Shown here: one piece after another, positions 58,803 to 61,796 of the stretch
Position numbering within the stretch: position 1 is the first letter of the stretch
Layout of the letters: every line of letters starts with the position of its first letter
DNA from: Squalus acanthias
Lineage: Eukaryota
Assembly: GCA_030390025.1 (NCBI GenBank)
Contig: CM059432.1
Span: forward strand, 37,388,001 to 37,452,000
Reading direction: 5' to 3'
Length of the DNA stretch: 64,000 nt
Program-made: the position numbers and the translations under genes
The notes under the pieces: model-generated
What the model saw: the letters and a program-made list of their open reading frames with translations, nothing else
What the model was told of the DNA's origin: nothing
Database searches by the model: none

Positions 58803-59984
58803 TTAAATCCTGAGAAGGCTGCTGCGAGCTCTTCCCGACGGTGGGAGGGCACTGACCCTTCCCTCTGATCTGCCGCAGCCTGTTGCTGCGCTGACCCTTT
58901 CCTCTGATCTGCCGCAGCCTGTTACTGCTTCGATGTGGCCTGTCTCTACCCGGGTTATCTTAACCTGAAACTTACGCCCTGGGGCAGCCTGGGGACCTGA
59001 CCACATCTTCCTGGGCTGGGGTACTCTGCTTGACCTACGGGGAATTGCTATGGGCGGGGGCTCCGTGACGGACGGACCGGGTCCCGAGACCTTCAACGGG
59101 ATGACCTGGGGTTCCATCACAGGCGCCAGCTCCGCCTCCGCTGACTCCGCCTCCCTAACCTCGGGGCTGGCAGTTCGTGGCCCCGCCCTGCTCGGCCCAG
59201 CAAACGGCCCTTCACCCGTGATCTCTGCCTCCCCTGAGGACTGGACGTTCAAAGCGGGCGGCCACCCCTCTGGGAACCACATTGGTACTCCCTGTGCTCC
59301 TATAGCGGCTGACCCTGCCTCCTCTAGCTCCTCCCTCCTGTTGTCGGGACCTGCAGCTTGTGTGTCCACCCCGTGTGGATCTCTACCTATCGGCCCCAAT
59401 CCTCCCAGACCGTTCCTCAGGAACCACCCGTCATCATCACTATGCTCATCTGCACTATCCTCATCTGACCAGGGTACCCTGGGGTCCTCGTCATCTAACC
59501 CCCAACTCCAGAAAAACGCTGCATGATCGTCCGGGATGTCCCTTCCTCTGATGCAAGCTGCTATGCCTGCCTGTGTGCCTTGTGGTCCTACCTGGGGCTG
59601 TGCTTTCCCATTCGCAGGTCTGGCCCCTCCCTTAAGACAGGCCACCGCCCCTGCTTGTTTCTGTGAAATCTCACCTGCTGGAGGCTGCAGATTTCTATCC
59701 TGTTTTAAATCCTCATACTCCCTGCTCCTGGCTACCCTGTAGGCTGTTTTTATCTCTCTAAGCTGCCCTTCTAGCCTGAGCACGTCTAACTTTCCCATTT
59801 CTCGGGCATTCTCCTCCCGCAGGGTCTGCTCTCTAAGCTGCCCTTCCAGCCCATCTAATTTCCCTACTAAGCGGGCGTTCTCCTCCCGCAAGGCCTGCTC
59901 TTTTAACCTGGCCTCCTCACCGCAGACCCCCTCCTGTGCGTGTCTTTTAAAAGGACACAGGTAGGCAGGCTGCGTGGGCTCTAG
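58803..59984 (-). CDS. ORFX: in-frame extension past the gag stop (coiled coil, acidic patch, Pro/Gly-rich tail), function unknown
   Basis: Open for 393 codons from the codon after the gag TGA; no ATG near its start. Confidence 0.7.
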   Translation of the reverse strand, partial: LEPTQPAYLCPFKRHAQEGVCGEEARLKEQALREENARLVGKLDGLEGQLREQTLREENAREMGKLDVLRLEGQLREIKTAYRVARSREYEDLKQDRNLQPPAGEISQKQAGAVACLKGGARPANGKAQPQVGPQGTQAGIAACIRGRDIPDDHAAFFWSWGLDDEDPRVPWSDEDSADEHSDDDGWFLRNGLGGLGPIGRDPHGVDTQAAGPDNRREELEEAGSAAIGAQGVPMWFPEGWPPALNVQSSGEAEITGEGPFAGPSRAGPRTASPEVREAESAEAELAPVMEPQVIPLKVSGPGPSVTEPPPIAIPRRSSRVPQPRKMWSGPQAAPGRKFQVKITRVETGHIEAVTGCGRSEERVSAATGCGRSEGRVSALPPSGRARSSLLRI

Positions 59985-61796
59985 TCATGGGGCACTATTA
60001 GACGGTCCTGCGGCACCTACGGGGCCGGTTGCGACCGCCACCTGTCCACGCGCATTCAAAACCATCTTGCACATGACTCCTAACACTGCTTCGAGGTCTT
60101 CAGGAGAGGTGGGTGCCTTTGCTTCCTTAGCCGGGACAGGCGCCTGGGTTCGGACCGCGGGATTTTTATCCTTGGAATCCTTCCAAGGGTTCCTGCAGTG
60201 CTTGCGCCAGTGCCCTGTCTTCCCACACCCGTAACAGGCATTACTTGCCTGTGGGGCGCGATTACCCTCCTGATGCCACTCTCTTTGAGCCGGGGCTGCG
60301 GGTCGTACCTCATGTACTCTTCCCTTAAAGGGACGTGTTGCCATACCCCTTATGTTACGGTAACCTAACGTGAGTCGATTCAAGACCGACTCTTCCGTAA
60401 GGTTGAGGTCATTGGGATCGAACCAGGCTTTTGCCTGCTCTCTAACGGCTGGTAAACTGTTGGCTATTATGCACCTAAGCCAATGAATTAAAGCGGCGCC
60501 TTCCACATCTTCGCGCTCGGGCGCACCTAGACAGCTGCGCTCATATACTGGCCACAGCCTGTCGGCAAAAACCTTCGGGGGTTCTCCCTCCATCTGCACT
60601 GTCTGTCCCACTCTAGCAAACGGACCTCCGTCGTTCGCTCCCACTACTTCTAGGACCTCATTTTTCAATTCCTCATAACTTTTGTTTCCCCTCTTGCTCT
60701 CACCTGAGAGGCACTGAAGGACCGAGCTGTCTAATGAGAACAGCAGCATTTTTGCTGTCTCCCCATCATCGCAGCCGTTAATGGCTGCGGCTTGCTCAAC
60801 TTCCCTGAAATGTACGGAAGGGTCGTCTATCTCGGTCAGCTTCCTTACGTGGTTTATCATGGCTCTCAGCTGATGTGAACTGTGAGGCAACACCAGCTGT
60901 CCGAGGAGATCCCCCGGTTCTTCCCCACCGTTTCTGCTTGGGCCCCTTTTAATCCCCGTTACTGGATACAACGATCCCTTTTCTACTTCCTTTTCAACGG
61001 GCTCTTTTGTTTCTTCCGTTGCTTCCTCCCTAACCCAGGTTTCTGAATAGCTGGGTGGCGCGGAGGGCGCAGTGGCTACTACTTCTTCTGCTTTACTTGG
61101 TGGGGAATTTCTAAATCTCTCATTTACTAGCGGCTGGCGTGCCGACGGATTAATAAGGCACACCATGCCGTTCGCATTATTCACGGCCTTTTTGAGGCTC
61201 TCTATCTCTTTTTCGCAGGCGCTATGGTCGGCTCCCTGAAACTTATCCTCAAGGGCCAACTTATACGCCGACCTAACCCCCATTAAGCTCTCTTCTTGAG
61301 TTCTTATCTGGGCAGCTTGACGGTTACATCTTTCCTTCATCCTACTCTCGTTTAATTTTGCTTCAGTGATCTGGCACTCGAGATACTCTACCCTTGTTTT
61401 AAGGTAGCTGGAGACTTCCTGGCTTTCCTGGCGTAACTCATTTAAACTCTTAATGAGCGCCTCCCCTCCAGAAACCTTCTCCTCCATTTCCTCCTCTAGA
61501 TGCTTGATTCGAGCGGTTAGCGCTGTATTGGTCTGGTTTGAAATCTGGACCTGCCTTTTGTAGCACATAAGCCAGACTGCTTTCTCAACTGCCTTTTTAT
61601 GCTCCTTACTATCCGTCCACCTTTCAGCTGCCTCTAGTGGGCTCTTATCCGCTAACAGTTCGCTTATCCACTTTTTCGTTAGATTAACCTTTCCAAATAC
61701 GTAATCCGCTATCTTTTCCTGCATAACATTTCGTACAGTCATTCCAAAATCTAACACACTACCCTCTCGCTGCCAGTGTCCTGCCGCGGTCGCCAT
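59985..61796 (-). CDS. gag: Gag (coiled coil, capsid-like region, single CCHC zinc knuckle)
   Basis: CYGCGKTGHWRKHC; PSAPPSY late-domain motif; 603-aa intact frame right after the PBS. Confidence 0.9.
   Translation of the reverse strand: MATAAGHWQREGSVLDFGMTVRNVMQEKIADYVFGKVNLTKKWISELLADKSPLEAAERWTDSKEHKKAVEKAVWLMCYKRQVQISNQTNTALTARIKHLEEEMEEKVSGGEALIKSLNELRQESQEVSSYLKTRVEYLECQITEAKLNESRMKERCNRQAAQIRTQEESLMGVRSAYKLALEDKFQGADHSACEKEIESLKKAVNNANGMVCLINPSARQPLVNERFRNSPPSKAEEVVATAPSAPPSYSETWVREEATEETKEPVEKEVEKGSLYPVTGIKRGPSRNGGEEPGDLLGQLVLPHSSHQLRAMINHVRKLTEIDDPSVHFREVEQAAAINGCDDGETAKMLLFSLDSSVLQCLSGESKRGNKSYEELKNEVLEVVGANDGGPFARVGQTVQMEGEPPKVFADRLWPVYERSCLGAPEREDVEGAALIHWLRCIIANSLPAVREQAKAWFDPNDLNLTEESVLNRLTLGYRNIRGMATRPFKGRVHEVRPAAPAQREWHQEGNRAPQASNACYGCGKTGHWRKHCRNPWKDSKDKNPAVRTQAPVPAKEAKAPTSPEDLEAVLGVMCKMVLNARGQVAVATGPVGAAGPSNSAP
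61778..61795 (-). promoter_or_regulatory. Primer-binding site, tRNA-Arg(TCG)
   Basis: TGGCGACCGCGGCAGGAC complements the 3' end GTCCTGCCGCGGTCG-CCA of a vertebrate Arg-TCG isodecoder (recalled sequence); 5 nt from the LTR end. Confidence 0.88.

Follow-up and report, generated by a model that had tools for sequence, protein, structure and literature searches.

A pol-deleted endogenous retrovirus of Squalus acanthias with a long open frame behind a UGA-CUAG gag stop

The window analysed here is a stretch of 64,000 nucleotides (nt) from Squalus acanthias (NCBI GenBank assembly GCA_030390025.1, contig CM059432.1, positions 37,388,001 to 37,452,000 of the forward strand), and our subject is the endogenous retrovirus (ERV) that lies on its minus strand at 54711-63395 – a gag-positive, pol-deleted, env-positive unit between two long terminal repeats (LTRs). 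Between the LTRs come, in order, a leader of ~535 nt, gag, an open frame of 393 codons that we call ORFX, a spacer of ~285 nt and an env-like gene. We think it probable that this element is a non-autonomous derivative of a very young, high-copy ERV, pol-deleted yet with the frame behind its gag readthrough site kept, and that a Gag–ORFX fusion is made. The anatomical part of this reading, taken alone and as read from the sequence, is close to certain; that the fusion is made and also matters we put at even chances. The features, in the direction of transcription, are as follows.

62333-63395, minus strand: 5' LTR, starting TGTAG... and ending ...ACCAACA; it aligns to 54711-55743.
62259-62260, minus strand: candidate splice donor for an env mRNA (GAGTG/GTGAGC, the slash marking the putative splice point), with an acceptor (...GCAG/GA) 13 nt before the env ATG.
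59988-61796 (stop to 59985), minus strand: gag of 603 codons, helical in its N-terminal part and bearing a single CCHC zinc knuckle.
59981-59987, minus strand: TGA-CTAG leaky-stop context (TGA 59987-59985, CTAG 59984-59981), the putative gag/pro-pol readthrough site of the family.
59953-59984, minus strand: first 11 codons of the helper pro-pol (LEPTQPAYLCP); BLASTN homology to the pol-bearing copy L024 stops at 59953.
59915-59978, minus strand: predicted imperfect stem-loop of 21 base pairs, starting 9 nt after the UGA, found in ORFX-type copies only and including a shorter hairpin named in the original prediction.
59619-59952, minus strand: foreign insert of 334 nt, ORFX codons 12-122, with a repeated LREENAR...EGQLRE unit.
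58806-59618, minus strand: post-integrase C-terminal tail of pol, 271 codons, with an acidic, Trp/Phe-rich stretch; predicted to be disordered.
58852-58928, minus strand: 39-nt tandem repeat near the 3' end of ORFX and pol, its unit number differing among copies.
58803-58805, minus strand: TAA common to ORFX and the helper pol (...ARSSLLRI*).
58533-58802, minus strand: non-coding spacer with an inverted repeat and an AT-rich repeat; the candidate env splice acceptor (...GCAG/GA) lies at 58533/58532.
56168-58519, minus strand: env-like gene, 783 codons; its product has a signal peptide, a hydrophobic, heptad-containing region behind an RQRR cleavage-type site, and a C-terminal membrane span.
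54711-55743, minus strand: 3' LTR, with a purine tract (AGGAGGGAC) before it; below 54711 it is truncated by N.

At the end of gag the minus strand reads ...CCA TGA CTA GAG, and the frame behind the TGA remains open for 393 codons: 31 codons lead into a 362-residue open reading frame (ORF; 59891-58803) in the same frame, which ends with the TAA at 58805-58803. The predicted readthrough fusion has 603 + 393 = 996 residues, plus the residue inserted at the stop, and the sequence thereby bears out what the original prediction had read here, namely a TGA-CTAG at the gag end, 31 open codons and a fusion of about 997 residues. In the same 1179 nt there are 24 and 22 stops in the two remaining sense frames and 4 to 18 in those of the antisense strand, so that an open frame of this length is not a matter of chance.

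What lies behind the same junction elsewhere in the genome was read from a sample of siblings: the first 40 other gag matches in the 3.7-Gb assembly, chosen on gag score alone and followed for 4.8 kb past the gag end. All 40 loci carry TGA-CTAG; 27 of them bear pol, and 13 are of the window's own kind (hereafter ORFX-type). In every one of the 27 a pro-pol ORF of 1487 to ~1500 codons follows in frame behind an identical TGA-CTAG; it is open in 23, four of which run 1487 codons to the stop while 19 are open through all 1499 codons fetched. Its end (...ARSSLLRI*) is also the end of ORFX. Helper elements with pol behind this very junction, which the original prediction could only envisage, are thus present in numbers.

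The sibling Pol is complete by its Pfam domains – protease (residues 17-111), RVT_1 (245-407), tether and RNase H (470-793), integrase zinc domain (875-933), integrase core (951-1047) and an SH3-like C-terminal domain (1182-1224) – and the stop sits between the nucleocapsid (NC) zinc knuckle, which in the window's gag ends 69 residues upstream of it, and the protease active site (LLDTGAS, pol residues 34-40). Sequence matches in the PDB are the reverse transcriptases of Ty3, of murine leukaemia virus (MLV) and xenotropic MLV-related virus (XMRV) and of foamy virus, together with the integrase of prototype foamy virus (PFV). Among database entries this Pol is closest to an unnamed assembly protein (86% identity) and a frog ‘NYNRIN-like’ model (43%); identity to ordinary fish, amphibian and turtle ERV Pols is ~30%. 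The helper Pol (in L023 and others) also has an unusual disordered tail of ~250-265 residues, from ~1237 onwards, after the integrase SH3-like domain, and this tail contains a conserved acidic, Trp/Phe-rich stretch.

The stop context is nearly constant across the family: TGA-CTAG is found in 63 of the 63 copies fetched and, genome-wide, at 1985 of the 2011 junctions that keep the exact flanking letters, the exceptions among the junctions listed including TAA-CTAG and TGA-CTGG. Motif and frame thus hold across copies, the frame in all 27 pol-bearing ones. Such conservation is no proof of selection in itself, because the copies are very young, and shows only that the signal was present in what was copied. 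The stronger argument is that the pol-bearing copies have no other way to make Pol, which makes the stop a functional readthrough site. We conclude that TGA-CTAG is the Gag–Pol readthrough site of this family, with its activity put forward by analogy. According to the passages available of one study (PMC4132726), the genes OPRL1, OPRK1, AQP4 and MAPK10, all efficiently read through, have UGA-CUAG at their stops, as does MDH1 (~3.5%); the motif also occurs at several alphavirus stops, and on its own it yields readthrough of several per cent or more in reporter assays.

In its layout the junction resembles that of the readthrough retroviruses of gamma and epsilon type, with one in-frame stop between the NC knuckle and the DTG of the protease, and with gag, pro and pol sharing a frame. 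It differs from them in the stop context, UGA-CUAG, and in that no stable structure is predicted behind the stop of pol-type copies, unlike the pseudoknot of Moloney murine leukaemia virus (MoMLV), which begins 8 nt after the UAG of its UAG-GGA (PMC13517186, in the passages available). The retroviral gag–pro contexts given in the same passages of this 2026 review are UAGGGA in gammaretroviruses, UGAAGA in SSSV (the swim bladder sarcoma virus of salmon), UGACGA in a zebrafish ERV, UGAAGU in a frog ERV and UAGGGC in snakehead retrovirus (SnRV); for walleye dermal sarcoma virus (WDSV) they describe the location of the readthrough site and give no hexanucleotide (PMC13517186). The UGA-CUA(G), or ‘type II’, motif appears there only for alphaviruses and a dicistrovirus (PMC13517186). 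Judged by the contexts listed in those passages, a retroviral UGA-CUAG gag–pro junction seems not to have been described. With the vertebrate genes and alphaviruses the junction shares seven identical letters; the extensions there are short peptides or the alphavirus polymerase, whereas here they are Pol (in the helper) or a remnant of Pol (in the window element).

That the 393-codon frame is such a remnant follows from a BLASTN comparison of the window with the pol-bearing copy L024. Homology extends from gag into pol as far as codon 11 (59953) and resumes at pol codon 1237 (59618-58809, 94.7%); pol codons 12-1236, with protease, reverse transcriptase, RNase H and integrase, are absent from the window element. 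ORFX is made up of 11 pol codons, 111 foreign codons and 271 codons of the pol tail, and the deletion junction is in frame because the 32 + 334 nt before the tail amount to 122 codons. The original prediction had spoken of a non-Pol ORF, and this holds in so far as Pfam finds no enzymatic domain in ORFX, its sole match being a sub-threshold coiled coil; it does not hold for the sequence at large, 282 of whose 393 codons are pol (codons 1-11 and the last 271). By its sequence, then, ORFX is a pol remnant with a foreign helix-coding insert rather than a novel accessory gene – a mis-annotation that would have been tempting, and which is corrected by the fact that most of ORFX is Pol's own tail.

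The insert itself has only chance-level matches in the rest of the element, in the pol-bearing copy and in the other 54 kb of the window (BLASTN and TBLASTX). A search for its donor with edge words that exclude normal ORFX copies did not find one – of its four matches, the three that were read are point-mutated ORFX copies – and a diverged donor would escape such a search. AlphaFold2, run on the single sequence, predicts one helix at ORFX residues 21-97 (77 residues, pLDDT ~85-97), which lies wholly inside the insert, and gives nearly everything after it a pLDDT below 50. No protein relative of ORFX was found at E ≤ 0.001, either by a word-indexed search of proteins of 216-688 residues or by HMMER against 1.84 billion representatives.

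The ORFX-type copies also differ from their siblings in the RNA predicted to follow the stop. The hairpin of the original prediction is present (GTGTC at 59958-59954, GACAC at 59944-59940, with a stem of 5 base pairs and a loop of 9 nt) and begins 27 nt past the stop. It straddles the left deletion breakpoint, however, its 5' arm being helper sequence and its 3' arm insert, and since it is absent from pol-bearing copies it cannot be the readthrough stimulator of the family. It forms part of the longer stem-loop listed above, whose arms have the same two origins. Over the 120 nt after the stop, ORFX-type sequence has a minimum free energy of -48.7 kcal/mol (z = -2.25; of 200 shuffles, 3 fold equally well), against z = +0.88, no better than shuffles, for pol-type sequence. 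Across the 36 ORFX-type copies fetched the stem is paired in 750 of 756 cells, compared with 266 of 567 in pol-type copies, which cannot form it. Folding predicted no stimulatory structure of the gammaretroviral kind ~8 nt downstream in pol-type copies, pseudoknots as such not having been searched for. As no stable structure is predicted after the stop of pol-type copies, the linear UGA-CUAG seems to be the basic signal of the family, with the predicted stem no more than an extra of the deleted lineage.

Whether the ORFX frame has been maintained was assessed on two sets of copies: a sample of 16 ORFX-type copies selected without regard to ORFX (13 found through gag, three through the edge pattern, none by ORFX), and an alignment of all 36 ORFX-type copies fetched, 20 of which had been picked by an ORFX protein search. 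In the first set 14 of 16 copies are open to the common stop and two are broken. ORFX exists in at least seven length variants (393, 388, 386, 382, 375, 373 and 369 codons), all of them in frame. Indels inside ORFX that are common to at least two of the 36 copies have net lengths of 33, 21, 39 and 78 nt, each divisible by three (the 33-nt one being aligned as adjacent gaps of 10 and 23 nt, in three copies each), and the only net frame-breaking indel is a singleton of 2 nt. At the tandem-repeat site, 30 copies lack 39 nt and five lack 78 nt relative to the longest. Among 107 shared substitutions in ORFX there is not one stop, where 3.9-4.8 would be expected (Poisson P ~0.01-0.02); stops are not accumulating freely in this frame. 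In-frame indels and the lack of shared stops together lean towards a maintained ORFX frame.

The chief rival to this is that ORFX is a dead remnant – that the deletion fell in frame by luck, that decay has not had time to set in among such young copies, and that fusion and frame are irrelevant. Several observations weigh on its side and against a maintained, functional fusion. The omega ratio of the shared ORFX variants is ~0.89 (0.88 for the insert, 0.94 for the tail) against 0.43 for the last 90 gag codons, and the pairwise omega over 20 copies is 0.84 for ORFX against 0.20 for 499 gag codons. Since a lower value would be expected for a protein function that depends on sequence, such a function is disfavoured; nor do the predicted disorder of the tail and the lack of protein relatives give any sign of a folded one. 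With copies so young, inheritance in place of selection could account for much of the openness, and broken copies are about as frequent for ORFX (two of 16) as for pol (four of 27) and env (two of 13), as if all were merely young. Only 16 copies make up the sample drawn independently of ORFX, and the substitution counts draw for 20 of their 36 copies on the ORFX search, which favours open copies. In the stem described above, no compensatory double change is seen among the five pairs that vary across the 36 copies; two of these keep their pairing through one-sided changes, and three are broken in one to four copies.

Yet a dead remnant would have to be reconciled with the greater diversity of ORFX-type copies, whose mean tail identity among those fetched is 97.1%, compared with 99.8% among pol-type copies. 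It would also have to account for the fact that all of their length variants stayed in frame while the adjoining spacer shows shared indels of 1, 2, 5 and 19 nt, mostly not multiples of three, and for the lack of shared stops where four to five would be expected. We consider the dead-remnant account rather unlikely. The sequence pattern seems rather to be that of a frame selected in the lineages that get copied, with residues largely free, as would suit a disordered extension.

The same pattern – omega of ~0.9, in-frame indels, no shared stops – would suit another rival, according to which the frame is open for the sake of the RNA: readthrough ribosomes would travel ~1.2 kb further, for instance keeping decay factors off, and any stop-free sequence would do. 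Readthrough can indeed protect retroviral RNA from nonsense-mediated decay. However, ~3.5 kb of untranslated env and LTR still follow the ORFX stop, so that translation of ORFX would shorten the long 3' stretch only in part. In addition, the last ~45 codons of the ORFX/pol tail are almost invariant even at silent sites; this suggests a local cis-acting RNA or DNA element at the end of the pol tail and not a need for mere openness. We regard this rival as decidedly unlikely.

A further possibility, which we rate as very unlikely, is that readthrough plays no part and the ORFX protein is made alone, starting on a subgenomic or spliced RNA at the AUG of codon 63. In 35 of the 36 ORFX-type copies no in-frame AUG of ORFX precedes Met63, which stands in a context (GAAAUGG) with A at -3 and G at +4. 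On the other hand, the 62 codons before it, too, are open and share the gag frame in every copy except one, which an internal start would not need. The expression data, such as they are, consist of contigs from four public runs that are only guessed to be RNA, none being on record as such; because all four consist of contigs, depth cannot rank the parts of the element and is silent on readthrough. Contigs in X1 and X5 bridge the gag stop and the left breakpoint (an ORFX-type junction), and a loose end in X3 continues into pol-type sequence. No contig joins the leader to a site before ORFX, a weak point against a separate start given contig data; the only join from the leader goes to env. It is found in one X3 contig, which connects 62259 to 58531 with GT..AG on the minus strand and has 23 letters on its shorter side. 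This looks like the env splice, though weakly so, with a single contig from a run only guessed to be RNA.

Returning to a maintained frame behind the readthrough site, the mechanism we propose is this. The autonomous siblings can make Pol only by reading through the gag stop TGA-CTAG. In the window's lineage, pol codons 12-1236 were replaced in frame by 334 nt of foreign sequence, and the same readthrough would now yield Gag followed by 11 protease residues, a helix of ~77 residues and the disordered C-terminal tail of Pol. If the stop behaves like UGA-CUAG in vertebrate genes and alphaviruses, a few per cent of ribosomes might read through; the fusion would presumably co-assemble with Gag as Gag–Pol does, the element would be copied with the enzymes of its pol-bearing siblings, and lineages that lost the ORFX frame would have been transmitted less well.

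Elements of this general category are well known. Mouse ETn/MusD is a non-autonomous element copied by an autonomous partner, and the cattle ERVK[2-1-LTR] is reportedly a non-autonomous retroviral element with an autonomous partner. Like ETn/MusD and Moloney murine sarcoma virus (MoMSV), the latter described as helper-dependent in the passages available of the 2026 review (PMC13517186), the window element is without pol, has a gag near-identical to that of an abundant pol-bearing sibling and is present in many copies. Unlike them, it keeps gag and env open and carries a long frame with a foreign helix behind a recoding signal. We know of no described pol-less element with a maintained frame behind a recoding site – no targeted literature search having been made – and it is this maintained frame with its foreign helix, not the copying by a helper, that is unusual here.

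The genome-wide counts give some idea of the size and history of the two populations. An exact 32-mer across the left breakpoint of the ORFX type occurs at 896 places in the 3.7-Gb genome, and the corresponding pol-type 32-mer at 1230. Gag has thousands of candidates in the genome, and all 73 of the matches scored, both types included, are open and 99-100% identical. In the 32 nt between the stop and the breakpoint, ORFX-type and pol-type copies are only 81% identical, against ~97.7% for the end of gag and the tail; differences between the types also cluster at the start of the tail, and a minor ORFX variant is intermediate between the two in the 32-nt stretch. This may hint – no more, the stretch being short – at an old deletion whose flanks were later homogenised by recombination with current helpers, except beside the heterology.

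A bolder version of the maintained-frame reading builds on this: the ORFX lineage would be an old, specialised hitchhiker that loads its own cargo of helix and tail into particles with helper enzymes by means of the Gag–Pol signal, tuned by the acquired stem-loop 9 nt past the UGA, and the cargo helix would be a captured one of 77 residues, probably self-associating. It is hinted at by the divergent 32-nt stretch, by a frame that survived at least seven length variants and by a stem confined to the ORFX type, and we think it unlikely.

Should UGA-CUAG be read through here, a ‘type II’ context known from alphaviruses and vertebrate genes would join the short list of retroviral gag–pro signals, and some two thousand near-identical, largely intact copies would offer a natural system in which to study the motif. 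A defective retrovirus that keeps a frame but not its residues would moreover separate the requirement that the ribosome must continue from the requirement that the protein must work. It thus gives a testable handle on why Gag–Pol-like products, or translation past gag, should matter for a genome copied in trans.

The wider affinities of the family are less clear. Lokiretroviruses, as described in the passages available of PMC7947760, are similar in their lower-vertebrate hosts, in a helical extra region and in a Pol ~30% identical to ordinary class I Pols, and their Env, like that of the window element, combines a signal peptide, a basic cleavage site, a fusion-peptide-like stretch, a coiled coil and a membrane span. 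In contrast to theirs, however, the window Env has no match to the paramyxovirus/pneumovirus F0 family PF00523, even at E up to 10. We therefore rejected a placement among the lokiretroviruses and treat the affinity as a lead only. The available passages of that paper report no cartilaginous-fish host, the words ‘shark’ and ‘cartilaginous’ occurring 0 times in them (PMC7947760).

Pfam assigns no family above threshold to gag, ORFX or env, and no ORF of the element contains a polymerase or integrase domain. Gag gave no match when compared with longer proteins; env has no sequence match in the PDB, and its best match in a protein atlas (0.84, to an unnamed chordate cluster) is below a useful level. 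In the surface part of env, residues 88-167 (58018-58258) give a very weak hint of Ig_3 (E = 0.43). Env is open in 11 of 13 ORFX-type copies, which had been chosen on gag.

The two LTRs of the window element are 92.8% identical over 709 nt, with 22 gap openings, and 99.4% identical over the other 328 nt. Their differences, between 54711-55418 and 62333-63011, are mostly small changes of length in short repeats (GATGA runs and duplicated 20-mers). An age estimate from LTR divergence was considered and dropped, because the 3' LTR runs into N and because the differences are mostly of this repeat-length kind. In the spacer, a GC-rich inverted repeat (GGGGCCGCCC / GGGCGGC) stands at 58775-58802, directly 3' of the ORFX/pol stop, and is followed by an AT-rich run of GTTTTAAG-type repeats whose length is highly variable between copies.

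Copies of the family lie on all of the large contigs listed. Some form head-to-tail arrays with an LTR-to-LTR period of ~7.6-7.8 kb – for example, three ORFX-type junctions 7.7 kb apart on one contig – so that tandem amplification or unequal LTR recombination, besides new insertions, contributed to the copy number. Also frequent is a third junction variant (...AGTACCCCA-TGA-CTAGAA), at places found in neither the ORFX-type nor the pol-type 32-mer list; it could represent one more subfamily or a different deletion form. Runs X1-X14, labelled with six coded organisms, contain 34-49% of the 31-letter words that were sampled from the ORFX region, and near-identical copies therefore seem to be present under more than one species label.

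Around the element, the window carries 25 tRNA-Ala(AGC) genes on the minus strand (6690-53705), the majority arranged head to tail in an array with a ~1253-nt period, at whose edge the ERV lies. Close to the outer end of the 5' LTR, at 63651-63724, the plus strand carries a single tRNA-Ala(UGC) gene. The array is broken up by nested fragments of non-LTR retrotransposons with endonuclease and RVT_1 ORFs, at 7430-16106 and 24809-26399, one of which has an upstream ORF carrying a GDSL-lipase/esterase domain.

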